From Methanotrichaceae archaeon (GTDB lineage: Archaea > Halobacteriota > Methanosarcinia > Methanotrichales > Methanotrichaceae): a stretch of DNA of 64,000 nt. The stretch lies in NCBI GenBank assembly GCA_963748825.1, contig CAVVKN010000002.1, positions 64,001 through 128,000 on the forward strand. The letters run 5' to 3'. The position numbers were made by a program, and so were the translations under genes. Position 1 is the stretch's first letter. Each line of letters begins with the position of its first letter. Below, piece after piece: positions 26,803 to 43,724 of the stretch. The notes under the pieces were generated by a model that had not been told where the DNA came from, did not search any database, and was given only the letters and a program-made list of their open reading frames with translations.

Positions 26803-27651
26803 CTAAATCACTCCCCGGTAGTACGCCATCCTCCTGGCATGGGGCCGGAAAAGCTCCAGCAGCCTCTTCTCTTCCTCTTCAGCTAGCGGCTGGAACTCCC
26901 TGCCCACCTGGGCCAGCGTCTGCACCTCTCTGGGGCTGGAGCAGCCCACGATGGCCGTGCTGATCTCCCGGGAAAGGGCAAACCGCAGGAGCAGCTCTGC
27001 CGTCACTCCATCCTGCGGGGAGATGTAATGCGAGGCCCCCAGCACCTTCATGCCGATAACGGCCAGGCCTCTGTCCTTTGCAGCGGCCATTACTCGGTCC
27101 AGAAATCCGCCCAAGACGGCTTCTGCCGGATTGACGGGCATGAGCACGGCGTCCACCGGCCAGTTTTTCACGGCGTGCTCCAGGATTTTCGGGGCATGGT
27201 GACCGGTGACGCCCAGGAAGCGCACCAGTCCTGCGTCTTTGGCCTCAACAAACGCCTGCAGGGCTCCGCCTGGTCCCTCGATCTCCTCGATATCCTGGCG
27301 TGTCCGAACGTCATGAATCTGCCACAGGTCCAGGCGCTCCAGGCCCATTGTCTCCAGGGACTCTGCCAGATCGGCCCTGGCACCCCGGTAGTCGCGGGCG
27401 GCGGACTTGCTGGTCTGAAAGATGCTGAAGCGTTGCTGTGCGTGGCTGCGCCAAAAACTGCCATAGTAGCCCTGGCTGCCCGCGTAAGCCTGCGCCGAGT
27501 CGAAGTAGGTTATGCCTTGGGCTGCTGCCTCCTCGATCACGGCCTTGGCCTCCTTCTCGCGCCCGTAGGTTCGCAGCACGCCCTCCCCGCCCAGTCCCAC
27601 CTGAGTGATGGCCGGGCCCGACTTTCCGAAGAGCCTCGTAGTAATAGTCAC
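26803..27651 (-). CDS. Aldo/keto reductase
   Basis: VGLGG, GITYFDSAQAY, LDLWQIHD, RFLGVTGH, IGMKVLG; probable GTG start at 27651. Confidence 0.88.
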   Translation of the reverse strand: MTITTRLFGKSGPAITQVGLGGEGVLRTYGREKEAKAVIEEAAAQGITYFDSAQAYAGSQGYYGSFWRSHAQQRFSIFQTSKSAARDYRGARADLAESLETMGLERLDLWQIHDVRTRQDIEEIEGPGGALQAFVEAKDAGLVRFLGVTGHHAPKILEHAVKNWPVDAVLMPVNPAEAVLGGFLDRVMAAAKDRGLAVIGMKVLGASHYISPQDGVTAELLLRFALSREISTAIVGCSSPREVQTLAQVGREFQPLAEEEEKRLLELFRPHARRMAYYRGVI

Positions 27652-27810
27652 AATAATCCCAGCAAGTATATTTGGCCGGCAGAGTATAAAAAAGGAGGCT
27701 CTTGGCCGTTTAGTATTATTGTGGGCAAGGTTATGATTCGATTCCAATCGTTTTGTCTCGTGCCCGCAAGCATCAAATGCCATCGGCAATGATTATCTAA
27801 GGCGAAGTGC

Positions 27811-28662
27811 ATGGACGCTGATCTCTGGGCAAAAGAAGCAGATGAACTGTATCAACATGGCCAATTCGATGAAGCCATCCCATTTTACGAGAGGGTCATA
27901 GAGCAAGATCCGGAAAATGCAGAATTGTGGAACCGCAGAGGTTTGACCCTATGTCGCCTGGGCAGGCACCAGGAGGCCATTGATTCATTTGAGACCGCCC
28001 TGAAGATAGACCCGAAGTACACCGATGCCCAGAATAATAAAGGCGTTGTTTTCTACAAACAGAAGAGATACGATGAGGCCATGGCATATTTTGACGGGAT
28101 AATCAGGACGAATCCCCGGTACGTTAGAGCCTGGTACAACAAGGGCGTGGTCTTAGACAGGCAGGGAATGTACCGAGAGGCCGTCAATTATTACGATAGA
28201 ACCCTTGAGATGAATCCCGGCGGAGCTCGAGTATGGTGCAATCGAGGAGCGGCTCTGGGAAATATGGGCGACTACGAAGCAGCCTTGGACAGCTTTGACA
28301 GGTCCATAGCCCTGCAGCCAGAAAGAAGTGAGTTCTGGAACAACAAGGGAGCCGCTTTGGCAAAGCTGCACAGATACGATGAGGCAGTGGCGCATTTTGA
28401 CAGGGCACTTCAGATCGATCCAGAAAATGCCGATGCCTGGTACAACAGGGGCGAGGCTCTACGGCGTCTGAATCAGTTTGCGGAAGCGATCGAAGATTTT
28501 GATAGGGTCATTGAGATCGATGACCGGCATGCCAGAGCCTGGAACAGCAAAGGCCTTGCTCTCAAGGCTTTGGGCAAGGATAACGAGGCGGATGCAGCCT
28601 TTGCTAAAGGCTCAGAGCTAATGCTGAATGGGAGCAAGAGACAAGAAGCGCAGGAGATCTGA
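27811..28662 (+). CDS. Tetratricopeptide repeat protein
   Basis: About eight 34-aa repeats AWxNKGxxL...EAxxxFDxAL. Confidence 0.92.
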   Translation: MDADLWAKEADELYQHGQFDEAIPFYERVIEQDPENAELWNRRGLTLCRLGRHQEAIDSFETALKIDPKYTDAQNNKGVVFYKQKRYDEAMAYFDGIIRTNPRYVRAWYNKGVVLDRQGMYREAVNYYDRTLEMNPGGARVWCNRGAALGNMGDYEAALDSFDRSIALQPERSEFWNNKGAALAKLHRYDEAVAHFDRALQIDPENADAWYNRGEALRRLNQFAEAIEDFDRVIEIDDRHARAWNSKGLALKALGKDNEADAAFAKGSELMLNGSKRQEAQEI

Positions 28663-28668
28663 TGCAGC

Positions 28669-28734
28669 GATGAATAGGAGGGAGGCAAAAGTCTTAGTGT
28701 AGGAGGGAAGAAAAGAGGTGCTTCGACTTTTGCC
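28669..28734 (-). ncRNA. Candidate sRNA, copy A (hairpin with anti-SD motifs)
   Basis: GGCAAAAGTC/GACTTTTGCC 10-bp stem, TCCCTCCT in loop and 3' tail, TATA (TTAAATAT, 28765-28758) upstream; paralog at 41168-41233. Confidence 0.6.
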
Positions 28735-29274
28735 GATTAGACTATAAGCATTCGCCGATATTTAAGGATTTCGCCACGATAACTAATTGAGCAATCATAC
28801 CTCCGGAAAAGAACTACCAGATAATTACAAACCAGCCTAGTGTAATGCGCTCAGTGTCGTGGTGTACAAATACAAAGTTTTTATCATATCTGCTTTTGCG
28901 CTTGCTTTGTCAAGTAGCAACTCATTTGCTGGTTTGGAATATGGAAGAGCGAATCCTTATGCTTACTCTAGAATGCAATATGATCGCCTTGGCCACCTGC
29001 GAAGCCTGCGAAGAGTCCAACTAAGCAAAATCTTCTATATCAATCACAACCCTGAGCTTCCACTTTGCGGCTAGAATACGCAGCATACTCTCCTATCGAG
29101 CTTGCGTGGCTACCGCATGGCCCATCTTTCCAAAAGCCTCAACGTATTAGCCAAACCGACCTGCTGCAAGTTCGTCCGTCAATATTTATAAAGATTCTTG
29201 ATATATTCATCTGGAACTATAACGCCCTATTGTATGCACATTATTTTAGTTATATTTAAAGCATATATAAATTT

Positions 29275-31926
29275 CTACATTCGTTTTTCGGGTTTTTTTA
29301 TTATCATATCGGGATAGACCTTAAGTGGTCTACCATCAACGGTTCCAATTTCATAAGCATTTTTATCCCTGTAACGTGACGCATTTAATATTTCATCTAC
29401 TGTTATCCCCCAGAATTTTGCCAATGATTCGAGAACTACCCCACCAATTCCCTCTGCGAAAAATCGTTTACCAAACTCCTCAGCATTATGCTCTTCTAGA
29501 TAGTGAGGTTCTAACCAGATGTAATCCAGAGACCCTACCAAAATACCTTGTAAACCATCCTCTACCGCAATTACATTTGAGTTTAAATTAACTAATTTGT
29601 ATTTTTTTATTTCTTCCATCAATTCAAGTCGATCTATGATAAAAATCTCATCTTGGGAACCATGAAATTCAATTATTTGCTGAGAATTTATCCAGCCATG
29701 TGCATCATAAGCCACTGTAAGAGTTCCAATATCGCCGTTTAATTTTCTTATTATTAAAGATAGTGATGCTTGATCCTCTTGATTTTTGATCTTATCAAAA
29801 ATTAATTTAGCTTGTTCGGATGCCCATTTAGCCATATTTACTTTATCTGCAATTGGAATTGCTGAATCTCTTGATAATTTTGTTGTGTTGCCAATAAAAA
29901 TGCCCGCTAATCCATGTAAATCTGCAGCTCGCAAGCCGCCTACAGTGACAACACCTGATAAATATCTTCCAAATATTCGCATCATGTCTGAAGAGATACA
30001 ACCACGCGCAATAATATTTCCTGATTGATCATGCATTGTGCGCAAGTTATTTTTCATCAAATTGATAATATCTATTTTATTGGATCTTTTTTTGCTAAAC
30101 TCCGCAAATAACCAAACCCTCTCAAGAAATTTTTCCGGATCAAGATCTACCCAATCCGATGAGCGGATAACTAATCTTCGCTCACAATTCTCGTTTTCTA
30201 CAAATATATTAACATCTATGCTTGGACAAAGCCAAGTGCACAAATCCTCAAGAGAGCAAGCTGAACAACTTCGTTCAAGAGGAAATCGGGATATCATCGA
30301 TTTTAACGGATTTTTAAGCCATACGCGAACTCGTGTTCCGCCATCTCGAAGGATTTCAGAAGTTGTTGCTTTTCTCAATATAGGTCGTGAGCTTAGGCCA
30401 CAATCGAATTCTAATACTTGTGTATCGCGCTGAGCTGCATCGTATCGACGTGTGGTCACGGATATATGATCCCCCCACATGAATGCGGAGAAAAATCCTA
30501 TGCCAAACTTTCCGGTGCATTGGAGACCTTTAGACAACAACCCTGGAAATTCATTTATCATTAAGGTTGATCCCCAATAAGAACTGCCAAAATCTAATAA
30601 AGGCCCTGTCAGCACTTCTGTGGACATTCCTATGCCAGTATCCTCGATTTCTATCCAATCGCCTTCAGAATCCCTTCCCGTTCGGATACAAATATCACCC
30701 CAATCATTTGGACGTTCTTCAACTATCCTGCGAGTCCGAATTGCATCAGATCCATTCTGTATTAGTTCTCTAAGTGGAACTGTGAAATCTGGCCCATACA
30801 GATCTTCGCCACCAAATTTTTTAATAAGTTCTGGGACATCAGTAATTTTTATTCTTGCATCAATTGGAATCCAATTTTCGGTAGGGATTTGTTCTGCCAT
30901 CCTTATCGCGTCATTCACATTAGCTACTCCGCGAGCTGCAAATCGCTGTCGTCCTGAATCAGATAGAAGAGAATCAACTTGACTTAATTCGCGATCTATC
31001 ATGGTCAACGTATCAAAGCAAAGCCACCAAGAAGATGCTTCATTATTTGGAAATCTCGAACCAGATGTGAATACCAAGCGATCATTTTTAAGTAATGGTT
31101 GATGTAGATGGTCTTGAAAAACCCAGTGATCTCTTGAGCCTTGACTAGGTCTCCGAATGGATCTGAGGTAACATGGAGCCCTACTTGAATCTACATGACT
31201 AGCATCAGCAACCCTTAGCAGACATGCAAGTTTTAGGGGATCGATTTCCCATTCTTGAGGATATGGATGAAATGATCCAATTTTGCTTGGAAAACTCTCT
31301 TTTAGTTTCGAAACTGGCCACCAATGACTTTGTGCAAGCTTTCCAATAATGGGGCCATATTTATCGCGAAGTTCTACATTCTCTATTAAATGATACTCGT
31401 GATCATTTTCTTTCCATGAAATAAGGCATAGGCATTCTGCATATTTTGCATGTAAATTTCGCAATATTTGCTCTTTAGTCTTGAGAATGACTTCGTTATC
31501 CGCTTTTTGGATTTTGTCTCTATTCGGGATATGACCGATTTCATCCTTTAATATGGATGCTATAGTGTCACTCCAATTCGGTTCTCTACGCAGCTGATCA
31601 ATACCCTCTGGATAGGCTGCCAAACCCAAGCCCAAATCATGGATCAAGAAAGATCCACCTAGAACAAAGGCCTCCATCGGATTTAGCTCAAAATCATTTC
31701 CAGCAATTAAATCAGCAAGCTTCCATAATTTATCAAAATGGCTTGAATCATGAATTGTAAAGTCAGGCAAATCTCGCGCAATCTCATTTGCTAGTAAATT
31801 TGCATGTTTTCTAAATTCTCTATATTCATTCCTGAGTGATTCATAATGTATATAATATTTATCATCGTGATTATTTATTTTGCCTAACGATTTTTTCCAA
31901 ATGCCGGTTTCTTCATATTCAGACAT
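29275..31926 (-). CDS. HD-domain (HD-CE type) + HSP90-like GHKL ATPase fusion protein
   Basis: FTIHD..H, IHDLG, SHW, LLRVAD (HD domain); LRELIQNGSDA, IEDTGIGMS, GKFGIGFFS, GGTRV (GHKL boxes); visibly AT-rich. Confidence 0.85.
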   Translation of the reverse strand: MSEYEETGIWKKSLGKINNHDDKYYIHYESLRNEYREFRKHANLLANEIARDLPDFTIHDSSHFDKLWKLADLIAGNDFELNPMEAFVLGGSFLIHDLGLGLAAYPEGIDQLRREPNWSDTIASILKDEIGHIPNRDKIQKADNEVILKTKEQILRNLHAKYAECLCLISWKENDHEYHLIENVELRDKYGPIIGKLAQSHWWPVSKLKESFPSKIGSFHPYPQEWEIDPLKLACLLRVADASHVDSSRAPCYLRSIRRPSQGSRDHWVFQDHLHQPLLKNDRLVFTSGSRFPNNEASSWWLCFDTLTMIDRELSQVDSLLSDSGRQRFAARGVANVNDAIRMAEQIPTENWIPIDARIKITDVPELIKKFGGEDLYGPDFTVPLRELIQNGSDAIRTRRIVEERPNDWGDICIRTGRDSEGDWIEIEDTGIGMSTEVLTGPLLDFGSSYWGSTLMINEFPGLLSKGLQCTGKFGIGFFSAFMWGDHISVTTRRYDAAQRDTQVLEFDCGLSSRPILRKATTSEILRDGGTRVRVWLKNPLKSMISRFPLERSCSACSLEDLCTWLCPSIDVNIFVENENCERRLVIRSSDWVDLDPEKFLERVWLFAEFSKKRSNKIDIINLMKNNLRTMHDQSGNIIARGCISSDMMRIFGRYLSGVVTVGGLRAADLHGLAGIFIGNTTKLSRDSAIPIADKVNMAKWASEQAKLIFDKIKNQEDQASLSLIIRKLNGDIGTLTVAYDAHGWINSQQIIEFHGSQDEIFIIDRLELMEEIKKYKLVNLNSNVIAVEDGLQGILVGSLDYIWLEPHYLEEHNAEEFGKRFFAEGIGGVVLESLAKFWGITVDEILNASRYRDKNAYEIGTVDGRPLKVYPDMIIKKPEKRM

Positions 31927-32029
31927 CTAAGCATCCATTGTATAATTAGGTATTAAATAGAGTATCGCATCATTTCAAAATCTTAAATGTTTTCTACAAC
32001 GGAAGGATATCCGTTAGAGTTTTCTAAGG

Positions 32030-34174
32030 TTATCCTTTCATCGACAGCGATATTCTCTTCCTCTCCAGATCCACATCCAGCACCTTGACGGTGACCTTCT
32101 GCCTGGCTTTCACCACGTCGGTTGGATTCTTCACATAGCCATCCCGAAGCTGGCTGATGTGCACCAGCCCATCCTGATGTACACCAATGTCCACGAAGGC
32201 CCCGAAGGCAGTGACATTGGTCACAAGCCCTGGCAGCTTCATGCCGACCTTGAGATCCTCCATTTTCTCGATTCCCGGAGCAAAGCTGAAGGCCTCAAAC
32301 TCCGCTCTGGGATCGCGGCCCGGCCGGGACAGCTCCTCCAAAATGTCCTGCAGCGTGGCGGCGCCCGCTTTCTCGCTGATGTACTTCTTGGGGTCCAGCT
32401 TTTTCAGGAGGCTTTCATTATGCATCATCTCTTTTACGCTGACGCCTAAATCGCCCGCCATCTTCTCCACCAGAGGATAGCTCTCCGGATGCACAGCCGT
32501 GCCGTCCAGGGGATTGTCGCTCTCACGAATGCGCAAAAATCCCGCCGCCTGCTCGAAGGCCTTGGGCCCCAGGCGCGGCACTTTGTGCAGATCCTGGCGC
32601 GAGCAAAAGAGACCGTGCTCATTCCTGTACTTCACCACCGCCTCGGCCAACTTCGGGCCGAGACCGGAGACATAGGCCAGAAGCTCCCGGCTGGCGGCAT
32701 TTACATCCACTCCCACCAGGTTTACGCAGGAGGAGACCACATCGTCCAATGCGCGCCTCAGCGCGGGCTGGTCCACGTCATGCTGATACTGTCCCACGCC
32801 GATAGCATTGGGCTCGATTTTTACCAGCTCCGCCAGTGGGTCCATGAGCCGCCGCCCAATGGAGACTGTACCGCGCACGGTGGCATCCTCATGGGGAAAC
32901 TCCTGCCGGGCGACTTCCGACGTAGAATAAACCGATGCCCCGGATTCATTGACCATCATGATTGCCGGCTTTAGCCGGAGGCTCTGCAAGAAGGCCTGTG
33001 TCTCTCTGCCCGCGGTGCCGTTACCAACCGCAATCACCTCGATGTCTTTTTCCCTGCAAATCTCCTGCACTTTGACGGCAGCCTCCTCCCTCCTCTTCTG
33101 AGTATCATGTGGGTAGATCACATGGCTCTCTTGCAGCCGGCCCAATCTGTCGAGCACGGCCAGCTTGCAGCCGGTGCGCAGGCCCGGGTCCACGGCCAGG
33201 ACGCACTTTTGTCCGAGAGGCGGGTCCAAGAGAACCTGGCGCAGGTTTTCGGAAAAGACCTCGATGGCCTTCTCCTCGGCATGGGCGCGTGCTGCCGCTA
33301 GCGTCTCATTTTCCATGGAGGGGGCGAGGAGACGACGGTAGCCGTCCTCTGCCGCCTGCATCACCTGATCTGCCGCCGGACAATTTCTTTTTATGAAGAG
33401 CTCCTCTAAAACCGCCAGCCCGTCCTCCTCCGCCGGGGCCACGTGCAGGCTAAGCGCGCCCGTTCGCGCTCCTCGCAGCATGGCCAGGAGCCTGTGCGGG
33501 CTTGCCCGAGCGAGGGCTTCGGAAAAGTCCAGATAGTCCCTGAATTTTGCGTCGTCTTTCGCATCAGACGATTCTCCTTTTCCGGCAACTGCCACAGACC
33601 GGAGTAAGCCCTGCGATTGATAGAGCCGCCTCATTCTGCTTCGCGCCTCGGCATCCTCGCTCATCCACTCGGCCATGATGTCCCTCGCCCCGGCCAGGGC
33701 TTCCTCTGCAGAGGCGACCCCCTTCTCGGCATCCACAAAGGACAATGCCTCTTTCTCCGGGTCTAGGCCGCCAAGGTCCTGAGCAAAGATCCTCTTGGCC
33801 AGCGGCTCCAGGCCGCGCTCTTTCGCTGCAGTGGCCCGGGTCTTCCTCTTGGGCCGGAAGGGAAGGTAAATATCTTCCAGCATGGCCAGGGTGTCGGCTG
33901 CCTGCAGCTTCGCTTGCAGATCCGGTGTGAGCAGCTCTCGTTTGGCCAGAGAATGAAGAATGGCGTCTCTTCTCTCTTCGAGCTGCCGATTTTTGTAGAG
34001 TTGATCACGAATCCTGGAAATCGCTACTTCATCCAGATTTCCTGTGGCCTCTTTTCGGTATCTGGCAATGAAGGGAAGCGTTGCGCCGCCATCCAGCAAC
34101 TCAGCGGTGGCCTGGACCTCTCTCTCGCCCAGTGATAACTGCAAAGCCACCTTTTTAATTTGAGGATCGGACAT
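32030..34174 (-). CDS. tex: Tex-family RNA-binding transcription accessory protein
   Basis: PFIARYRKE.TG, DPGLRTGCK, IAVGNGTAGRET, IGVGQYQHDV, C-terminal S1 domain. Confidence 0.95.
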   Translation of the reverse strand: MSDPQIKKVALQLSLGEREVQATAELLDGGATLPFIARYRKEATGNLDEVAISRIRDQLYKNRQLEERRDAILHSLAKRELLTPDLQAKLQAADTLAMLEDIYLPFRPKRKTRATAAKERGLEPLAKRIFAQDLGGLDPEKEALSFVDAEKGVASAEEALAGARDIMAEWMSEDAEARSRMRRLYQSQGLLRSVAVAGKGESSDAKDDAKFRDYLDFSEALARASPHRLLAMLRGARTGALSLHVAPAEEDGLAVLEELFIKRNCPAADQVMQAAEDGYRRLLAPSMENETLAAARAHAEEKAIEVFSENLRQVLLDPPLGQKCVLAVDPGLRTGCKLAVLDRLGRLQESHVIYPHDTQKRREEAAVKVQEICREKDIEVIAVGNGTAGRETQAFLQSLRLKPAIMMVNESGASVYSTSEVARQEFPHEDATVRGTVSIGRRLMDPLAELVKIEPNAIGVGQYQHDVDQPALRRALDDVVSSCVNLVGVDVNAASRELLAYVSGLGPKLAEAVVKYRNEHGLFCSRQDLHKVPRLGPKAFEQAAGFLRIRESDNPLDGTAVHPESYPLVEKMAGDLGVSVKEMMHNESLLKKLDPKKYISEKAGAATLQDILEELSRPGRDPRAEFEAFSFAPGIEKMEDLKVGMKLPGLVTNVTAFGAFVDIGVHQDGLVHISQLRDGYVKNPTDVVKARQKVTVKVLDVDLERKRISLSMKG

Positions 34175-34316
34175 ATCGCATCCTTCTTGGAATGCAGAGA
34201 TCATTAATGCTTGGGCGATTAATGCCCGAAATTTTTAAAATAAAATTCTCACAATTTATTTTATCGAAACCTTTACCTACCCCCACGCCGTTCTTTCCTC
34301 CATCAGGTGACCCCTA

Positions 34317-36182
34317 TTGCAATTACTCTTAATCCACTCTGATTTCATTGAGTTCGAGGCCAAAAAGCCTACGAAGATGGCGGAAGAGATCGAAGACTCG
34401 GCCAAGAAAGGCCGGCTGGAAGAGGCACTCTGCGCCTTTATAGCCGTAGAGAAGTTTGACGAGGACGACCCGGATGCCGTCATAGCCGAAGGCGTCAAGC
34501 AGATCGCTGACGTAGCTGGCCAGGTGCACGCCGCCCGGATCATGCTCTATCCCTACGCGCACCTCAGCAGTCAGCTCTCCACTCCCGCGACGGCCATCAG
34601 AATCCTCAAAGGCATGCATGAGACCCTTTCCGCCAACTACGAGGTAATGCGCGCTCCTTTCGGCTGGTACAAGGCCTTTACCATCAGCTGCAAGGGCCAT
34701 CCGCTCTCTGAGCTGTCCCGTTCCATCCGGCTCGGAGAAGGCGAGGTGGTCTCCGAAGCCCTCAAGTCCGAGGCCAAGGCCGTCTCCTACTGGAAGGTGC
34801 TCGACTTAGAAGGCAACCTGATTGATGCCGACAAGTTCGACTTCACGGACCACGAAAACCTCAAGAAGTTCACCAACTACGAGATCTCCAAGGCCAGAGC
34901 CGTGGACAAGGTCCCGCCCCACGTGGAGCTGATGAGGCGCTTGGAGCTCGTGGACTACGAGCCCGGCTCCGATCCAGGCAACATGCGCTTCTATCCCAAG
35001 GGCAGGCTCATCAAATCGCTGCTGGAAAACTATGTACTTGACAGGGCCTCGGATATGGGCGCCATGGAGGTGGAGACGCCCATCATGTACGACATGGAGC
35101 ACCCCACCCTCAAGAAGTACCTGGACAGATTCCCGGCCCGGCAGTACCAGATCGATTCCGATAAGAAGAAGCTCTTCCTGAGATTCGCGGCCTGCTTCGG
35201 CCAGTTTCTCATGGGCCACGACATGACCATCTCCTACAAGGCCATGCCCCTTAAAATGTTCGAGATCACCCGATACTCCTTCCGGCGCGAACAACGGGGA
35301 GAGCTGGTAGGCATCCGCCGCCTGAGAGCTTTTACCATGCCCGATATGCACACCCTGGCCCGCGATATGAATTCCGCCATGGAGGAATTCAGAAAGCAGT
35401 ACCTGGCCAGCATCTCCGTCCTGAGCGAGGTGGGCATCGATCTGGCCGACTACGAGGTGGCCATCCGCTTCACCAAAGACTTCTATAACGAGAACCGCCA
35501 GTTTATCGAGGGCCTGGTAGACATCGTCAAGAAGCCCGTTCTTATTGAGATGTGGGATGAGAGGTTCTTTTACTTCGTGCTCAAGTTCGAGTTCAACTTC
35601 GTGGACACCCTGGACAAGGCCAGCGCCCTGGCCACCGTGCAGATCGATGTGGAGAACGCGGAGCGCTACGACATCACCTACATCGATGAGGCAGGAGAGA
35701 AACAGCAGCCCATTCTCTTGCACTGCTCCCCATCCGGGGCCATCGAGAGGGTCATGTACGCCCTCCTGGAGAAGGCGGCCCGCCTCTCCGAGGAAGGCAA
35801 GCTTCCCATGCTGCAGACCTGGCTGTCGCCCACGCAGGTCAGGATCATACCCGTGGCGGAGAGGCACCAGGCCCGCGCCCTGGAGATCGCCACGGAGCTC
35901 GGTTTCCGGACGGACATCGACGAGCGCGACGAGACGGTGAGCAAGAAGATTCGTGATGCAGGCCGCGAATGGATTCCCTACGTAGTGGTGATCGGGGACG
36001 AGGAGCTGGAATCCGGCAAGCTCTCCGTTACTATTCGCTCCGAATCCACGCCCAAGTCTCCAGCCAAGTCCAAGATGACTGTGGAATACCTGCGCCGAAG
36101 AGTCACTGCCGAGACCGCTGGCAAGCCCTGGCGCAGATTGCCGCTGCCCATGAAGCTCACCGAGCGGCCCAAGTTCATTTAA
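34317..36182 (+). CDS. thrS: Threonyl-tRNA synthetase, archaeal type
   Basis: MQLLLIHSD editing domain, [45 protein letters not shown]. Confidence 0.97.
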
Positions 36183-36500
36183 GAAAGAACAGGCAAAGAG
36201 TCGCAGGCGCGCCAGGCCAGTGCTTGTGGCTTTGATCTCTTTTTTTCATCAATCCAATTTCCGTCAACTCACGTTTTATGCCAGAGTTTGGAGGTAATAG
36301 AAGATGGTTTCACTTACCGGACTGATTATTGCGTAATTATCTTAGGCCTGGCCACATTCATACTGCCTGAAGCCCTCAACAGGTTCGCAGACTCTCGAAG
36401 CCAGCCCAGATAAGGGAAATCCGATTAAAGTAATCCATTTTTCGACCTCTTTTTGTTTAGCGAATTTAATTTTTATCCTTGGATTACTATCGATTTAAAT

Positions 36501-37640
36501 TTACGGCTCCGCCATTGGGTATCTGTCCACTCCCGGCCCACCCGGAACGTAGAAGATCCGTCCTAAATCGCTGTAGTGGTTGCCCACCAGGCCGTTGTCC
36601 CAGCGGTTGCTCTGGCCCATGTCATAGGCATTGTAACCATTGCCGACGAGATGGTTGGAAAAGAGCAGATTCCAGCCGGAGGAGAAAGATAGATAGATAC
36701 CGTATCCGTTCTCTTTCACGGTATTATTTTGCAGAGTATTATTGCTGCTGTGACCCGCTAGCTGCAATCCTTTCTCATTGAATGAAACGCTGTTGCCTTG
36801 CAGTGTGTTGTCATTGCTATCATATGAGAGGTAAATGCCCCGAGAATTGTCCGATGCCGTGTTTTCCCGGATGACGTTTCCTCGTGAACTGTCCAGATAT
36901 ATCCCCGCGTCCCTATTTCGGAATGCATTATTCTTTTCTATCAGATTTTGGTTGCTGGACTCTGATAAGGATATGCCATACCAATCGTTGTAGCTGATGC
37001 TATTGCCCCGCAGCGTGTTATTGCTTGCCGATCGCAGCGATAGGGATGAGTCGCCGTTGTTCATCAGATCATTATACTGAATGACGTTGTCTTGGGAATA
37101 GGCGAGAAAGATGCCGCAATCGCTCTCTTCATTGATGTTGTTATCCCGGACAGCATTTTTGGAAATAGTATTTCGCTCTGAGACATAGAGGGTGATGCCA
37201 TTGGTGTTGTTGTTTATATCATTGGAGGCGATGAAGTTGGAGCGGGAATGATCCAGACGAATTCCATCCAGGCACCCACTAATAGTATTATTCTCTATAA
37301 TATTATTTTCTGAAAGGACATGGATGCCTGTACGGCGCGTGGTTCTAATGTCAAATCCCGATATACTTGCCCCGTCGGCTCGAAGGATTATTGCACTGTT
37401 CATTGCGCCTGCATCCAGCAGAGGACGACCGATGCCCAACAGAATGATCGGTTTGCTTATGTTCAGGCTCTCTCGATAAACCCCGCTCTGAACAGATATG
37501 GTATCTCCGGAATTTGCCCCATTTACAGCGGCCTGAATGCTCTCTCCGGGGCTGACATTAATTGCAGCCGCCGGGGCCATTGACGACAGAAAGATGATGG
37601 CTACAGCCAGCACTGTTAGATGCTCTCCTCTATGCTTCAT
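36501..37640 (-). CDS. Secreted NosD/CASH parallel beta-helix protein
   Basis: Signal peptide, SIQAAVN..GDTI.V..GVY.E, many GIxLxxSxNN repeats, terminal DRYP. Confidence 0.85.
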   Translation of the reverse strand: MKHRGEHLTVLAVAIIFLSSMAPAAAINVSPGESIQAAVNGANSGDTISVQSGVYRESLNISKPIILLGIGRPLLDAGAMNSAIILRADGASISGFDIRTTRRTGIHVLSENNIIENNTISGCLDGIRLDHSRSNFIASNDINNNTNGITLYVSERNTISKNAVRDNNINEESDCGIFLAYSQDNVIQYNDLMNNGDSSLSLRSASNNTLRGNSISYNDWYGISLSESSNQNLIEKNNAFRNRDAGIYLDSSRGNVIRENTASDNSRGIYLSYDSNDNTLQGNSVSFNEKGLQLAGHSSNNTLQNNTVKENGYGIYLSFSSGWNLLFSNHLVGNGYNAYDMGQSNRWDNGLVGNHYSDLGRIFYVPGGPGVDRYPMAEP

Positions 37641-37889
37641 TGCCTTTCCCAGATACTACTATGGTTTTCTAATTTAAAAACTTGCCTTTAGAAGTGCATC
37701 TTCCGAAGAGCTTATCCTGAAGAACTAATCAGGAAATCGCTTTGAAAAAGTAACTGTAGCTAAATCGCAGAGGCTGCAATCCATTTCATAATCAGAGGAG
37801 AGTAGATCACTAACATGATCGGTAGATTCCAGATCCCAGCCACCAAAGATCTATTAAGAAAAAAAGCACAATTAATAGTGGAGATTGAT

Positions 37890-38246
37890 ATGTCTGCTAT
37901 AGTTCATTTCGAGATTCCCTATGATGAAGCGGAAAGGGCCAAGAAATTCTACACGGAGCTTTTCGGTTGGAAGGTTGAGGCTTTTGCTCCTGGAATGGAT
38001 TACTGGATGATCCAAACCCAGGATGGAACAGGTGGCGGCTTGATGAAGCGCCAGCATCCAGATCATAAGATCACCGACTACTTTGGAGTCCCTTCCCTCC
38101 TGGAGTCTTCCGCCAAGGTAGAGAAGCTGGGTGGCAAGATTCTCATGCCCAAGATGGCCGTTCCCAAGATGGGCTACTTTGCAGTCTGCATGGACACCGA
38201 GGGAAATGTCTTCGGCCTCTGGGAGGAAGATTCCCTGGCCAAATGA
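37890..38246 (+). CDS. VOC/glyoxalase-family protein
   Basis: IVHFEIP...RAKKFY..LFGW and DTEGNVFGLW. Confidence 0.9.
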   Translation: MSAIVHFEIPYDEAERAKKFYTELFGWKVEAFAPGMDYWMIQTQDGTGGGLMKRQHPDHKITDYFGVPSLLESSAKVEKLGGKILMPKMAVPKMGYFAVCMDTEGNVFGLWEEDSLAK

Positions 38247-38422
38247 AACGGTGTGGGAATTCTTCGGGAGGATGTTGCTGATTTGAGAATGGCACTGCTG
38301 GCTACTGCTTTGCACCATGGCGTATGATTAAAGGCATGGCCAGAGCTGAAAACCTTCTCTGGCCAGAAGAAATTTCTATACGCCCTCAGGCTTTCGGGCT
38401 TATCATATCCCGATTGATATTT

Positions 38423-40939
38423 TTAAGACGTCTCCATGCGGTAGAAAATCTTTTTCACAAGCTCAGCAGCTGCGATGTAAATCCCCACAATAACTGCTAT
38501 TATGACCAGAAAATAAGTTGGTATTTTTGTGAAGCCAAAGGGCTCCGATAGCGGGCTGAATGGCAGGATGAAAGTAAATAGGCCAACCAAAAGTGTCACG
38601 ACTATCAATGAAATGCTTGGTCTGGACGAGAAAAATGGTCTTTTGGTGCGAATGATCAGCACAACAAAGGAGGCCGATACCACCGACTCGATGAACCATC
38701 CGGTTCTGAACTGATCAACAGTTGCATGTAGCAGGAATAACAGCGCTCCAAAGGTCAAGAAGTCAAATAAAGAGCTCAGCAGGCCGAAGGTCACCATGAA
38801 GTTCCTGATGAATCCAATTGACCATCGCCTTGGTTGTGATACCAGTTCTGGGTCCACCCTGTCCCCTGCAATGGTCATCTCCGGAAGGTCGGTCAAGAGG
38901 TTAGTGAGCAGGACCTGTGTGGGAAGAAGGGGCAGGAATGGAAGGAACAGGGAAAGCAGGGCCATGCTGAACATGTTTCCGAAATTGGCGGATGTAGCCA
39001 TGAAGACGTACTTCATAGTGTTGGAGAATGTCTTTCTCCCTTCGATGACACCTTGTTTTAGAACACTAAGGTCTTTTTCCAGGAGGACTATATCGGCAGC
39101 CTCCTTGGCCACATCTGCGGCACTGTCTACAGAGATACCGATATCAGCAGCGTGAAGGGCGGAGGCGTCGTTGATACCATCGCCCATATAACCCACCACG
39201 TTTCCGGTCTTGCGCAGGGCCAGGATAAGTCTCTCCTTCTGGTTTGGCTCCACCTCAGCAAAGACATCAACTTCCGAAACGAGCTTTGAAAGAGCCTCGT
39301 CGCTTTCCCGCCGAATTTCGGGGCCAGTCAGGATTCTTCCTTCAAGCAGCTTTAACTGTTTGCTGATACTTGTTGCCACAAGCCGGTTGTCGCCGGTTAT
39401 TATCTTGAGGCCAATCCCTAATTGGTTCAGGTCGCTAATGGTCTGTGCGATTCCCTCCTTTAGCGGATCGAATAAGACCAGGAATCCCAAGAACGTCATC
39501 TCCGCTTCATCTCTAGCAAGAAGGACGCCGGCCTCAACAGTCTTCTTGGCCAGGCCCAGAACTCGGAATCCCTTCCCGCTAAGCTCCTGGAATCTGGCCT
39601 GGATCTGGTCTTTGACCAAAGAGATATCCACAACTTCCTGGGCCATCATGGCGGAGGTACAGATCTCCAGGACGTTTACCAGGGCCCCCTTGGTAACGAT
39701 AGTGTGTTCGTCGTCATTTGATACCAGAATGCTTAGGCGCTTTCGGACAAAGTCGTAAGGCACCTCATCTAATTTTTTAAATCCGGAAACATCGAGTTTA
39801 CGATAACTGAGGATGGCCTGGTCGATAGGATTGGAAAACCCTGTCTCGAAGAAGGCGTTTACATAGGCCAAGAGAAAAACTCCTTCACTCTCCTCACCTT
39901 CAAGATCCAGAACTGAGTTTAGCTTTACTGTCCCTTCCGTCAGGGTTCCTGTCTTGTCGGTGCATAGAATGTTCATGCTCCCAAAATTTTCAATCGAAGC
40001 CAGACGTTTGACTATGACTTTATGAGTGGCCATTTGCCTGGCTCCGTGGGCCAGATTTATGCTGATAATGGCCGGAAGGAGCTGAGGTGTCAGGCCAACC
40101 GCCAGTGCCAAAGAAAAGAGAAAAGAATCTACAATTGGGCGGGCCAGGTAGACGTTTATGGCAAAAATGGCCACTACCAGAACCATTGTTACCTCTAGAA
40201 GCAGGTAGCCAAAGTGTTTGACACCGTGTTCAAACTCCGTCTCAGGCTCACGGAGCTTGAGTCGCTGAGATACGCGTCCAAACTCAGTATCCGTTCCTGT
40301 ATGGACGACTACAGCCTTGGCAGTCCCGCTGACTACGTTTGTCCCCATAAAAAGGCTATTGGTGCGCTTGCTTAGAGGCGTGTCCTCGTCCAGACTTCCG
40401 GTCATTTTTTCAGCAGGATAAGTCTCCCCGGTAAGTGTCGCCTCGTTGATGAAGAGATCTTTGGACTGGAGGATCCGGGAATCTCCTGGGACGATATCAC
40501 CCGCGTTCAGCACTATAATGTCTCCGGGTACGATATACTCCATCAGGACGTCCTTTTGTATTCCGTCCCTAAGAACGGAGGCTTTGATCTGAATTATGGC
40601 CAGCAGACCGGCTACTGCATCTGCGGCGCTCCTCTCCTGCCAGAAGCCCAGCAGGCCGCTTATGAAAATTATGGCCAGGATAATCGATGCGCTGGTCACT
40701 TGATGGAGATAGAAAGAAAGGCCAGCGGCGAATACTAGCAGCAGAATTATAGGGCTATTGAACTGAGCCAGCAGCAAAAGGATAGAATAAGACTTCTTGC
40801 GGGGCTTTAGCAGGTTAGCACCGTATTGTTTGAGCCTTTTTTGAGCCTCCTTTTCATCCAGCCCCACCTCCTTTGCATCGAGCAATCTGAGCAGTTCTTC
40901 GGGTGAAGCAGACCAAAAGGCGGATAGATCACGGCTCAC
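38423..40939 (-). CDS. mgtA: Mg2+-translocating P-type ATPase
   Basis: LTGE, AVGLTPQLLP, DKTGTLT, PYDFVRKR, GDGIND, SANFGNMFS. Confidence 0.92.
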   Translation of the reverse strand: MSRDLSAFWSASPEELLRLLDAKEVGLDEKEAQKRLKQYGANLLKPRKKSYSILLLLAQFNSPIILLLVFAAGLSFYLHQVTSASIILAIIFISGLLGFWQERSAADAVAGLLAIIQIKASVLRDGIQKDVLMEYIVPGDIIVLNAGDIVPGDSRILQSKDLFINEATLTGETYPAEKMTGSLDEDTPLSKRTNSLFMGTNVVSGTAKAVVVHTGTDTEFGRVSQRLKLREPETEFEHGVKHFGYLLLEVTMVLVVAIFAINVYLARPIVDSFLFSLALAVGLTPQLLPAIISINLAHGARQMATHKVIVKRLASIENFGSMNILCTDKTGTLTEGTVKLNSVLDLEGEESEGVFLLAYVNAFFETGFSNPIDQAILSYRKLDVSGFKKLDEVPYDFVRKRLSILVSNDDEHTIVTKGALVNVLEICTSAMMAQEVVDISLVKDQIQARFQELSGKGFRVLGLAKKTVEAGVLLARDEAEMTFLGFLVLFDPLKEGIAQTISDLNQLGIGLKIITGDNRLVATSISKQLKLLEGRILTGPEIRRESDEALSKLVSEVDVFAEVEPNQKERLILALRKTGNVVGYMGDGINDASALHAADIGISVDSAADVAKEAADIVLLEKDLSVLKQGVIEGRKTFSNTMKYVFMATSANFGNMFSMALLSLFLPFLPLLPTQVLLTNLLTDLPEMTIAGDRVDPELVSQPRRWSIGFIRNFMVTFGLLSSLFDFLTFGALLFLLHATVDQFRTGWFIESVVSASFVVLIIRTKRPFFSSRPSISLIVVTLLVGLFTFILPFSPLSEPFGFTKIPTYFLVIIAVIVGIYIAAAELVKKIFYRMETS

Positions 40940-41167
40940 AAATGTCTATTATACCTCTGAAGGGATAACTCTTTCCAACATCTCTAACGTTTTTTGATAT
41001 TCCCGGACCAACGACTTTCCAACGCGGCCGGAGCCGTTCGAATCTCACCCAAAATGGCCTGCCTGCATCTCAATATCTCATTCTCCTGATTATTTCTTTG
41101 GAGTGAAAATGATCTTTTCGGCCTGAACCGAAAGCCTTTTATATCGGCAATTGACGTATAGTATATT

Positions 41168-41233
41168 GGCAAAAGTCGAAGCTATTTTTCCCTCCTACAT
41201 CACTGACTTTTGCCTCCCTCCTTCTTATTCATC
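41168..41233 (+). ncRNA. Candidate sRNA, copy B (hairpin with anti-SD motifs)
   Basis: Same stem and TCCCTCCT motifs as 28669-28734; TATA TTTTATAT at 41137-41144 with identical spacing to the stem. Confidence 0.6.
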
Positions 41234-41543
41234 AAACGCTTTCATGAGGATCTAGAACATCCGATTTCATCCATCCTCCGCTTTCCAAAAGAAAGACTTA
41301 TAGCCTAAATCATCCTTATTCCTTCAAGAACGCCAGCCATTCGGAGGAGAGGCAATTAAGTCGGGGCGATGAGGCTTGAAGACTGGCCAGGCCCACAGCC
41401 CCATTTATATCCCCGGCACCCTTGATTTTTACAGGTGCATGTGTATCTGTATCTGGCTCAAAATCGATTTTCTGGATCGCGGCTCAGCTCTTCGGAGATA
41501 TTTGTATAGTATTATAAAAATAGTTTAGGAAAATGCCATAGAA

Positions 41544-41683
41544 CCATATTTGCCTGAATCTACCTGGGCGTTGTAGCGGCTGGCGAGACTGAGGAGGAGA
41601 CGTTGGAGCTGATGAAGGAAGCTACAGAATTCCACTTAAAAGAAGAGAATCGTCCATGCTTCCAGAATTCCTTAAGATCATAA
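41544..41683 (+). pseudogene. HicB/UPF0150-family antitoxin remnant
   Basis: VVAAGETEEETLELMKEATEFHLK from 41570, preceded by frameshifted PYLPE/LPG. Confidence 0.65.
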
Positions 41684-41854
41684 TCTTAGCAGAAATTTTT
41701 CGAACAATATTATATATACACATACATCCTTCAAGAAAGATAGCAAAAGCAACGCCTGGTGTACTCTCTGGAAAGCTCACCTCCCTTAAAAATCCTTAAA
41801 TAGTAATAATGCCCGATTGAGGGAAGTTGCAAAAAATATTTGGCGGTTATAGGC

Positions 41855-42286
41855 ATGAAAAGAATCTTGGTATGTATTCTATTATTACTACTATGGATCG
41901 GTGTGGATTCGGTAAGCGCAGACACAATCTCTGCCCAGATAGACTCGTTCGATTTTCCATCCGGTGACTGGTACCGAGGGTCCAATCAGGGAGGAGCCAA
42001 TGTCTGGATAAAAAATACAGGTGATGTCGGTCATCTATTTTGGGTCTCCTACCAAGTGATGGATAAAAGAGGCCGGTGGTACAGTGCGCCACCAGAGTCT
42101 GTATATGCGGAACCAGGCGACAGCACGTATTTTGTTAATCCGGTTTGGAATATTCCTGATGATGCGGAGCTGGGTAACTACCAAGCAGATTTTTATTTAT
42201 ATGGATATTATGACAGTCGCACAGGGGAGCTGTCCGAACAGTTGGATCAAGTAGACCAAGTAGGTGCATTTAGAGTTGTAGGATGA
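41855..42286 (+). CDS. Secreted hypothetical protein (beta-rich, Ig-like)
   Basis: Signal peptide; IKNTGD and WNIPDDAELGNY motifs resemble CARDB/Ig-like domains. Confidence 0.65.
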   Translation: MKRILVCILLLLLWIGVDSVSADTISAQIDSFDFPSGDWYRGSNQGGANVWIKNTGDVGHLFWVSYQVMDKRGRWYSAPPESVYAEPGDSTYFVNPVWNIPDDAELGNYQADFYLYGYYDSRTGELSEQLDQVDQVGAFRVVG

Positions 42287-42605
42287 GGTGTTAGAGTAGG
42301 GGCCAATAAAATATTGGCCGCGTGGGTGAGTTACTGAAAACCAAGGGTAATCTTCACTTTACTATTTTTTGGTTGCAATTTGATAAAAGCTCGGGAGCCA
42401 AGTGGCCACTTGCGATCCCTTTCGACCACGCAGCAGCCGCCGCAGAGCGGGCCTCTGGTCCCCAGGCGTACGGTTTCCCGGTCATCTCTGCTCGATCAGA
42501 TTCCCGCCTGTTTTCCTGCCGCGTCCGATCCAAATCTGATCCAAATCCTTTTCTTCTTGTTTTCCTATTCTCATAAATGGCTCAAGTTTACAGGATGATG
42601 CATAT

Positions 42606-43724
42606 TTGAACCAATTCAAAATATGGTTTCGCTACAACAACAAGAACTCCTACAGCATTGCTGCCCTGATGCCGCTCGTCGAGGCAGGCATAGCACGGGA
42701 GCCGAAGGACGGCATCATGCTCTACAGTTTCGCCACTGCCCAGGCGGCGGAGGTCTACAGCGAGGTCAGCCGCGCGGTGGTGGATGCCGTCTACATCGCC
42801 GGCGGCCCACATCCTTCTGCTCTGCCCGAGCAGGTTCTGGAGCACTTCGACTTCGTGGTGATAGGAGAGGGAGAGGAAACGCTTCCGGAATTGATAGAGG
42901 CAATAGAAAACGGTCGGGACCCGGCCTCGGTTAAGGGCATAGCCTACAAATGCCAGGGACAGGTTTTATTCACGGAAAAGAGGGCCCCGGTAGATCTGGA
43001 CTCTTATCCGCCCTTCGCCAAGATCCTGGCCCCGATCGAGATCTCTCGCGGCTGCCCCTGGGGCTGCACTTACTGCCAGACGCCGCGCCTCTTCGGCTCT
43101 TGCATGCGCCACAGATCGATCCCTGTCATCGCCAAGTACGCCCGCTACCACAAGGATATCCGCTTCACCTCCCCCAACTCGCTGGCCTACGGCTCAGACG
43201 GCCGCAGGCCAAGGCTGGAGAAGGTCGAGGCACTGCTCAAGGTTCTGGCCGAGCAAAAAAAGCCCATCTACTTCGGAACATTTCCCTCCGAGGTCCGGCC
43301 GGAGTTCGTCACCCCAGCGGCCCTGGAGCTTGTCGTCAAATACTGTGCCAATAAGAGCCTCAGCCTGGGCGGTCAGTCCGGCAGCCCGGCAGTGCTGCGC
43401 AGCATCGGTCGGGGCCACGGGCGCGGTGAGATCGAGGCAGCTTGTGAACTGGCCCTGGATTATGGTCTAACTCCGCAGGTGGATCTGATCTTCGGCCTTC
43501 CAACGGAGTCAGAGGAGGATCAGCGCATGACCCTCGACCTGGTAAGATGGATCGCGGCCAAGGGCGGCAAAGTGCGGGCGCATCGCTTCATGCCCCTGCC
43601 GGGAACGCCCCTGGCGGAAACGCGGCCCGCGCCTCTGGCAGATGACGTGGAGGCGTGCCTGGGCAAGATGGCCCTGGAGGGACGCCTGACAGGCACCTGG
43701 TCGGCCGGGACCAGGACCGATTGA
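42606..43724 (+). CDS. B12-binding domain/radical SAM protein (MJ1487/TIGR04013-like)
   Basis: AGGPHPS, GEGEETL, EISRGCPWGCTYCQTP, GTFPSEVRPE. Confidence 0.85.
   Translation: MNQFKIWFRYNNKNSYSIAALMPLVEAGIAREPKDGIMLYSFATAQAAEVYSEVSRAVVDAVYIAGGPHPSALPEQVLEHFDFVVIGEGEETLPELIEAIENGRDPASVKGIAYKCQGQVLFTEKRAPVDLDSYPPFAKILAPIEISRGCPWGCTYCQTPRLFGSCMRHRSIPVIAKYARYHKDIRFTSPNSLAYGSDGRRPRLEKVEALLKVLAEQKKPIYFGTFPSEVRPEFVTPAALELVVKYCANKSLSLGGQSGSPAVLRSIGRGHGRGEIEAACELALDYGLTPQVDLIFGLPTESEEDQRMTLDLVRWIAAKGGKVRAHRFMPLPGTPLAETRPAPLADDVEACLGKMALEGRLTGTWSAGTRTD

Follow-up and report, generated by a model that had tools for sequence, protein, structure and literature searches.

Few archaeal small RNAs (sRNAs) have, to our knowledge, a known mechanism. 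In Firmicutes, the CU-rich sRNA families LhrC1-5 of Listeria and RsaE of Staphylococcus are multi-copy, partly arranged in tandem, and use UCCC/CCUC motifs, placed in loops and in single-stranded parts, to target Shine-Dalgarno (SD) regions. In the methanogen Methanosarcina mazei, sRNA41, sRNA154 and sRNA162 are described in reviews as occluding ribosome-binding sites (RBSs), and sRNA41 has been proposed to mask several of these sites within polycistronic mRNAs (PMC5867862, PMC6560208). The alpha-proteobacterial NfeR1, as portrayed in its published account, carries three redundant CCUCCUCCC motifs in unpaired regions and acts on many mRNA start regions (PMC10746234). In Methanolobus psychrophilus R15, a nine-copy, cold-induced sRNA family with a conserved BRE/TATA was reported to be transcribed (PMC5378194, Fig. 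S7). An earlier note on the DNA studied here had proposed a multi-copy, trans-acting anti-SD sRNA family from two look-alike copies and had likened it to sRNA162 and sRNA41. The mode of action assumed in this parallel, RBS occlusion, is what the reviews state for both (PMC5867862, PMC6560208).

The window analysed here, i.e. the whole 64-kb stretch of DNA, spans positions 64001-128000 of contig C2 in a 2.88-Mb assembly of 25 contigs. Copy A is located on its minus strand between a TPR gene (27811-28662) and an HD-CE/HATPase gene (29275-31926); the TPR gene converges on copy A, in agreement with the earlier statement that no ORF follows it. The promoter, as read from the sequence, consists of a BRE-like CGAAATCC (28773-28766) and a TATA box TTAAATAT (28765-28758), invariant in three orthologues, and is separated from the predicted start by a 23-nt spacer (28735-28757) in which a CG-N8-CG dyad-like element is weak. 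The predicted RNA of about 62–66 nt (28669-28734; covariance-model match 28670-28734, 67.3 bits) begins with a hairpin (28684-28734), whose stem halves at 28734-28725 (GGCAAAAGTC) and 28693-28684 (GACTTTTGCC) enclose a 31-nt pyrimidine-rich loop with CCCUCCU at 28707-28701. Its tail contains the single-stranded motif CCUCCCUCCU (DNA CCTCCCTCCT; 28676-28685), with two overlapping CCUCC, and ends with ATTCATC (28675-28669).

Copy B is located on the plus strand, in a 1.67-kb gene-poor gap after a divergent P-type ATPase gene. Here, CGAAAGCC (41129-41136) and TTTTATAT (41137-41144) form the promoter, the 23-nt spacer (41145-41167) contains the dyad CGGCAATTGACG, and the predicted RNA (41168-41233), which is the top covariance-model match of the genome (74.8 bits), has its first G at 41168. 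The stem is formed by 41168-41177 (GGCAAAAGTC) and 41205-41214 (GACTTTTGCC), the loop motif CCCUCCU is found at 41190-41196, and the tail CCUCCCUCCU (DNA CCTCCCTCCT) occupies 41213-41222, with the final ATTCATC ending at 41233. When both copies are aligned, the promoter, the stem halves and both motifs are identical, and the linkers have diverged. Reading and alignment thus bear out the shared promoter, 23-nt spacer, stem, motifs and ATTCATC end that the earlier note had described; its layout of copy B stands as regards the parts but not the orientation, which is opposite to that of A. The predicted folds reach -14.2 kcal/mol for A (z = -3.6 against shuffles) and -13.8 kcal/mol for B (z = -5.1), and a covariance model built from 15 genomic copies retrieves them from the whole genome with E = 2e-12 and E = 3e-14, respectively. 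Given these values, the resemblance between A and B is far beyond chance. A putative second RNA on the minus strand (41285-41385) was also considered and discarded, as its fold equals that of shuffles (z = 0.01).

Two copies proved to be too low a count. A third was found in the whole genome with an exact stem-plus-tail pattern, and looser scans combined with an HMM yielded 16 clear copies and 2 weaker ones. A covariance model, R1, which has 63 positions and 12 pairs and is based on 15 copies rather than the two proposed in the earlier note, gave 17 matches at E <= 0.003 among the 19 listed at E <= 1. A divergent copy that falls outside these 17 matches (C7:32338) keeps the promoter and has a longer helix of different sequence, bringing the family in this genome to about 18 copies. 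Four of them are arranged in tandem on contig C14, with 121–180-nt spacing and their own TATA box each, and this spacing limits the predicted RNA length to about 80 nt at most. A tRNA gene follows the array. For at least 6 of the 18 copies, the next gene or ORF is convergent, and for three, an ORF of 100 aa or more on the same strand starts 35–108 nt past the predicted RNA. Because copies converge on the next ORF, stand in tandem and seldom have a close same-strand ORF, the family is not generally a leader. Twelve of the 18 copies are clear of ORFs of 100 aa or longer; the ORFs overlapped by the other six are unverified. No consistently adjacent gene was found in Methanotrichaceae.

The family hairpin has 10–13 bp, with the stem GGCAAAAGUCGA / GACUUUUGCC and a pyrimidine-rich loop exposing CCCUCCU(ACAUC), and most copies carry the tail CUCCCUCCU. 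We aligned 64 homologues to the model, in which 93% of 766 stem cells are paired, compared with 34–51% in slid-partner controls, and double changes occur in 6 of the 12 pairs (21 cells vs 7.4 in shuffles), an alignment that leans toward structure because it was fitted to the model. Most stem pairs keep one pair type in 57–63 of the 64 sequences, and the stem sequence is near-invariant across paralogues, orthologues and even other families, which suggests an additional protein or other partner. CCUCC/CCCUC was detected in the loop of all 64 homologues. CCUCC was present in the tail of 15 out of 17 copies from this genome, 30 out of 43 from other Methanotrichaceae and none of the 4 from other families. 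The loop motif is predicted to be unpaired (p >= 0.9) in 16 of the 18 copies of this genome, with an unpaired probability of 0.95–1.0 in copy A, and the distal CCUCC in the tail of copy A reaches 0.98–0.99. An exposed anti-RBS sequence in a loop, as in M. mazei sRNA41, sRNA154 and sRNA162, is therefore a feature of this family as well. The conserved loop word CCCUCCUACAUC is longer than the SD complement, and the loop motif has CCUCCUA in common with the 3' terminus of the 16S gene in this genome (...CACCUCCUAACG). Both the constancy of the stem and the additional UACAUC indicate an extra constraint, which might come from a protein partner or from resemblance to the 16S 3' end.

The promoter of the family is an archaeal BRE/TATA box located 23–24 nt upstream of a G. 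In the upstream consensus of the 64 homologues, an A-rich BRE (-39 to -34, or more narrowly -37 to -34) and TATA (-31 to -24) are followed by the dyad-like CGnCAATTGnCG (-23 to -12), and at least six of the nine bases from -32 to -24 are A/T in all 64, with at least seven in 61 of them. These homologues therefore have a BRE/TATA of their own at the archaeal promoter distance, as expected of independent sRNA genes, and the geometry fits a predicted start on, or directly next to, the first G of GGCAAAAGUCGA. In 64 out of 64 homologues, the strand chosen in the earlier note is the only one with the conserved BRE/TATA at a suitable distance. No clear terminator emerged, since only a minority of the 64 have at least four consecutive T close to the tail, and a scan for sigma-70 promoters and intrinsic terminators returned nothing useful, these models not being applicable to archaea. 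In public RNA runs, the shares found were small (at most 0.09 of the words). Over 27500-43500, assembled contigs from four public runs contained neighbouring genes of relatives and neither locus as RNA, a result that is silent on expression either way; all the pieces that touch the loci are short (28707-28777, and up to 41248) and belong to one run, which is probably DNA.

At least four other species share the arrangement of the copy A unit beside the TPR gene. In its orthologues, the 105–125-bp unit is 83–95% identical, compared with 69–81% for the adjacent TPR coding sequence. A four-species alignment shows conservation that starts at the BRE and stops after CCUCCUAUUCAU, exact from BRE to tail, with diverging flanks. 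This footprint suggests an RNA of about 62–66 nt; promoter geometry gives its predicted 5' end, and its predicted 3' end is the point at which the orthologues cease to be conserved. Since the unit is conserved across species as a block, from the BRE to just after the tail, the view that selection acts on an RNA gains support. Copy B, for its part, is contained in a repeated module of about 357 bp with sharp ends (41055-41411, plus strand), further copies of which are located at C3:84950-85303 and C23:266344-266692, with many in relatives, where its 3' part (41286-41411) also stands alone. In the closest relatives (three genomes), copy B does not adjoin the ATPase gene, the match stopping at query base 582. 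The near-invariant stem and the position of copy B inside this module are two facts that complicate a simple reading. We found no terminal inverted repeats or target-site duplications at 18 copies (longest direct or inverted flank words averaging 5.5 vs 5.2 nt in shuffles, a comparison of low power with fuzzy ends), so the signs of a MITE, which the earlier note had named as a possible refutation, did not appear. Overall, these copies very probably constitute a genuine, selected family of RNA genes.

The family is widespread in its own lineage. All 24 genomes of the same genus contain R1 matches (4–14 each). From across the class, 151 genomes with a completeness of 90% or more were drawn; all 64 Methanotrichaceae genomes among them carry the family, with 2–16 matches each, and single matches occur in three other families (15 of 76, 3 of 6 and 3 of 3 genomes); a fifth family, represented by one genome, had none. 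In presumed Methanosarcina (one genus with 3–4-Mb genomes), R1 matched 0 of 21 genomes, and a lenient search of five genomes of this genus gave nothing credible (best E 0.024). A pattern scan of named species genomes detected at least 118 loci, and the breakdown covers 80 of them. Among the 80 matches listed, 53 belong to Methanothrix, Methanosaeta or Methanotrichaceae, 7 to Methanolobus, 3 to Methanomethylovorans, 1 to Methanococcoides, 3 to ANME-2 or Ca. Methanocomedens, 2 to Methanosarcinaceae and 11 to unclassified Methanosarcinales. The source genome is therefore presumably that of a Methanothrix. The single-copy relatives in other families keep the TATA box and the GGCAAAAGUCGA/GACUUUUGCC stem, with CCCCUCU rather than CCUCC in the loop and no tail motif. 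A DUF2117 gene adjoins the single-copy homologue in two other genera; as a conserved neighbour it was rejected, given that in the source genome it lies 12.5 kb from the nearest copy.

The predicted RNAs match no Rfam family. A search of the whole window against Rfam release 15 at the gathering threshold detected a tRNA and nothing else, as did a search of five loci with homologues at E <= 1. With 600-nt windows at E <= 10, copy A gave no match, and copy B a 15.8-bit chance match to mir-266. A match to Rfam, which would have spoken against the earlier proposal, was thus found neither for the copies nor for their homologues. The literature on sRNAs in Methanothrix/Methanosaeta and on archaeal anti-RBS sRNAs yielded no account of the family either. 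The family is previously undescribed and, if SD masking holds, would be another anti-SD riboregulator.

Regarding the mode of action, we favour, with roughly even chances of its being true, the view that the family works by SD masking, as a trans-acting anti-SD riboregulator similar to sRNA41. Each copy would be an independent sRNA gene, transcribed from, or from next to, the first G of GGCAAAAGUCGA, so that the expected 5' end is the G of GGCAAAAG and the 3' end would fall within or after CCUCCUUCUUAU. The product of about 60–80 nt would fold into one 5' hairpin of 10–13 bp, whose 20–30-nt pyrimidine-rich loop presents CCCUCCU(ACAUC), and in most Methanotrichaceae copies a single-stranded 3' tail would present CUCCCUCCU. 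The exposed CCUCC tracts may then pair with purine-rich SD sequences of mRNAs (GGAGG, and extensions such as AGGAGGGAGG), and pairing at the SD would occlude 30S binding and damp translation. The approximately 18 genes are probably co-regulated, since they have a common promoter architecture with a CG-N8-CG dyad-like element, and gene dose would set the strength of the effect.

Genes led by AGGAGGGAGG are present in the source genome, in which exact GGAGG at SD spacing is only modestly enriched, a point against SD masking. The earlier remark that GGAGG-type RBSs occur in the window is true of individual genes, but the crude pattern GGAGG-N4-10-ATG is not enriched there (29 matches vs 24.9 +/- 4.8 in shuffles). 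When four exposed segments were paired with 612 putative SD-led start regions, three did better than their shuffles, though modestly (0, 3 and 2 of 30 shuffles reached the observed value), and the copy A tail paired no better than shuffles (14 of 30). Composition explains much of this signal, and target specificity is weak in silico. The perfect complement of the 12-nt loop motif has no site in the genome, where 11 one-mismatch sites are mostly inside ORF-like sequence, and no complementarity of at least 10 nt to the rRNA operon was found. Two MC1 genes of this genome carry GGUGUAGGAGG in the 5' UTR. The 5' UTR of this chromatin protein was rejected as a conserved target: 8 of the 10 genomes searched keep no more than a short SD, and the other 2 had no match. 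The top duplex partners (ACS, FpoH/J, an HdrD-like protein, a response regulator and others) were likewise set aside, being strong-SD genes with no specificity beyond composition. Target prediction of this kind yielded the modest excess over shuffles but no trans target, MC1 being unconserved in relatives. Anti-SD pairing does not explain the loop extension UACAUC and the near-invariant stem, which counts against it. The single-copy relatives of other families, with their CCCCUCU loop and no tail motif, also sit poorly with this mechanism. The interpretation offered in the earlier note is, on the whole, partly supported.

What SD masking does not explain could be expected of an RNA that acts mainly through a protein or ribonucleoprotein partner, with the invariant stem (GGCAAAAGUCGA / GACUUUUGCC) and the C/U-rich loop as its recognition site; we regard this as possible, though rather unlikely. 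The many copies would titrate or deliver a factor, e.g. a KH-type or Sm-like protein, or a recogniser of the CCUCC-bearing 16S 3' end, where Dim2-like KH proteins bind in archaea. The single pair type kept at most stem positions argues for such a partner, as do the conservation of the loop beyond the SD complement, the CCUCCUA that the loop has in common with the 16S 3' end and the weak specificity for mRNA targets. The comparison with NfeR1/alpha-r14, whose stems are said to 'differ highly' while their motifs are fixed (PMC10746234), points the same way. However, no candidate protein could be linked to the family, given the lack of a consistently adjacent gene in Methanotrichaceae and the distance to DUF2117, and the conservation of the stem could partly reflect constraints on initially transcribed DNA. 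A long shot, to our mind, is mimicry of the 16S rRNA 3' end, in which the RNAs would form a titratable pool that competes with the 30S for all SD-led mRNAs or decoys factors or nucleases of the 16S 3' end. Hairpin and single-stranded CCUCCU tail would offer up to 32 exposed CCUCC/CCCUC sites per set of about 18 genes, competition with the 30S would shift translation toward SD-less or leaderless messages, and the size of the pool would depend on a regulator that recognises the CG-N8-CG dyad of each promoter. If true, this would be a global translational rheostat based on gene dosage, a mode not described in archaea.

The module that surrounds copy B suggests a different origin of the repeats, namely a duplicating promoter-hairpin cassette, be it a mobile promoter, a start/stop module or a 5' leader, that spreads by segmental or tandem duplication and acts in cis or not at all, with CCUCC as a by-product. 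The sharp ends of the module and its recurrence on C3, C23 and in many relatives, an adjacency to the P-type ATPase gene that the closest relatives lack, copy numbers ranging from 2 to 16 among genomes, and the three copies with a same-strand ORF at 35–108 nt are all consistent with it. We nevertheless consider it improbable: the 18 copies showed no terminal inverted repeats or target-site duplications; four or more other species have copy A in the same position beside the TPR gene, which is less well conserved than the copy itself; the next gene is convergent for at least 6 of the 18 copies, and the four in tandem have nothing to lead. Moreover, a loop motif kept in 64 of 64 homologues is unexpected of a passive repeat, and single-copy homologues persist in other families. 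Transcription of the opposite strand, with AGGAGGG serving as a real SD of a very short peptide or the element being read within an antisense RNA, is scarcely credible. Two SD-like AGGAGGG tracts do lie on the reverse strand, and the stem is palindromic enough for weak reverse matches (4 of 68 matches, E 8e-4 to 8e-3), yet these score 21–26 bits vs 27–75 bits in the forward direction, no conserved BRE/TATA at a suitable distance exists on that strand in the 64 homologues, and by reading it offers a 9-codon frame in A but lacks a start at the corresponding position of B.

Among the methane producers that consume acetate, Methanothrix and its relatives rank with the most important ones in wetlands, rice soils and digesters. 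We know of no genetic tools for them, and we found no regulatory RNA described for them in the literature. The family thus provides a concrete and easily probed candidate for post-transcriptional control, which comes with one Northern probe and one covariance model, and the single-copy state (Methanolobus, Methanococcoides, ANME-2) and the expanded state (up to 16–18 genes) offer a natural comparison. If the anti-SD reading is true, the mechanism of the sRNA41 type would extend beyond Methanosarcina, with gene dosage added as a variable; if it is false, the invariant stem would point to an RNA-protein partnership not yet known.

The Firmicutes families LhrC1-5 and RsaE come from another domain of life, use other promoters and terminators, have lower copy numbers and show no sequence relation to the RNAs studied here. 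The nine-copy family of M. psychrophilus was considered as a possible identity and rejected, as its Northern probes in Table S2 imply purine-rich RNAs without the hairpin described here or CCUCC (PMC5378194); Methanolobus-like genomes contain at most one copy of our family. With sRNA41, loop 2 of sRNA154 and sRNA162, as the reviews present them, our family shares an intergenic location, a promoter of its own (predicted in our case), an exposed RBS complement and the same order-level group of methanogens. We found no homology to these three by R1 in the presumed Methanosarcina genomes (0 of 21; best E 0.024 in five), and non-identity with sRNA41 is based on these absent matches. The family, known here from its sequence, differs from sRNA41 in its roughly 18 genes per genome, its single short hairpin, its invariant stem and its tail motif. 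NfeR1/alpha-r14, as well as AbcR1/2, of alpha-proteobacteria likewise present several identical and ultraconserved C/U-rich anti-SD motifs (CCUCCUCCC) in unpaired regions (PMC10746234), although NfeR1 is a bacterial RNA that is about 123 nt long, folds into three hairpins and has a sigma-70 promoter. The alpha-r14 stems are reported to vary freely (PMC10746234), whereas those of our family are nearly invariant, with motifs that are likewise fixed and unpaired; between the two domains, homology is not to be expected. The source of redundancy differs as well: in NfeR1, it comes from hairpins within one RNA, and here, mostly from the copies of the gene, about 18 in this genome.

A dyad-like element, CGnCAATTGnCG, is found in all copies of the hairpin-sRNA family at positions -23 to -12, counted from the predicted start at the first G of the stem, and lies between this start and the TATA box. 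It occupies 41145–41156 on the plus strand in copy B and 28746–28757 on the minus strand in copy A, and in the family copy on contig C17 it is a perfect palindrome, CGGCAATTGCCG. This element may represent an operator common to the copies, recognized by a transcription regulator. Four family members, each with a separate promoter, are arranged in tandem on contig C14 of the window's genome (C14:28298–28790, corresponding to 1799–2290 of the extracted locus L011), with a same-strand tRNA gene about 300 nt beyond the array (L011:2586–2657). Similar arrays were detected in relatives, including G053 (contig C24), G090 (C50) and G045 (C47).

The 1.67-kb gap in which copy B is located (40940–42605) has no convincing gene. 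Given that further blocks in this gap, at approximately 41551–41656 and 41737–41899, also recur in relatives, the gap resembles a mosaic of non-coding repeat modules. Within the ~357-bp module that contains copy B, the 3' part (41286–41411) recurs in relatives as a separate block, and three instances were identified in the window's genome, each beside a B-type copy. Its minus strand carries a TATA-like box near 41404–41411 as well as a CCUCUCCUCC tract, and is T-rich near 41290; the predicted fold of this strand was no better than that of shuffled sequences. The block may encode a second small RNA, on the minus strand and convergent with copy B.

Two MC1 chromatin-protein genes of the window's genome (C9:230853–231179 and C18:118146–118487) have in common a 5' UTR word, GGUGUAGGAGG, complementary to the sRNA loop over 10–11 bp; this word is not kept in the MC1 genes of relatives. 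Four 16S rRNA 3' ends were detected in the same assembly (on C5, C7, C10 and C18), and since three of them lie within ~3.5 kb of a contig end, the data suggest that the assembly is interrupted at rRNA operons.

In the window's genome, the DUF2117 gene (C17:12593–13570) does not adjoin any family copy. In two other genera, a DUF2117 gene is located beside the single-copy homologue (269–1453 of locus L038 and 3–659 of locus L040): in one genus the two are directly divergent and 48 nt apart, and in the other they are separated by a metallo-beta-lactamase gene.
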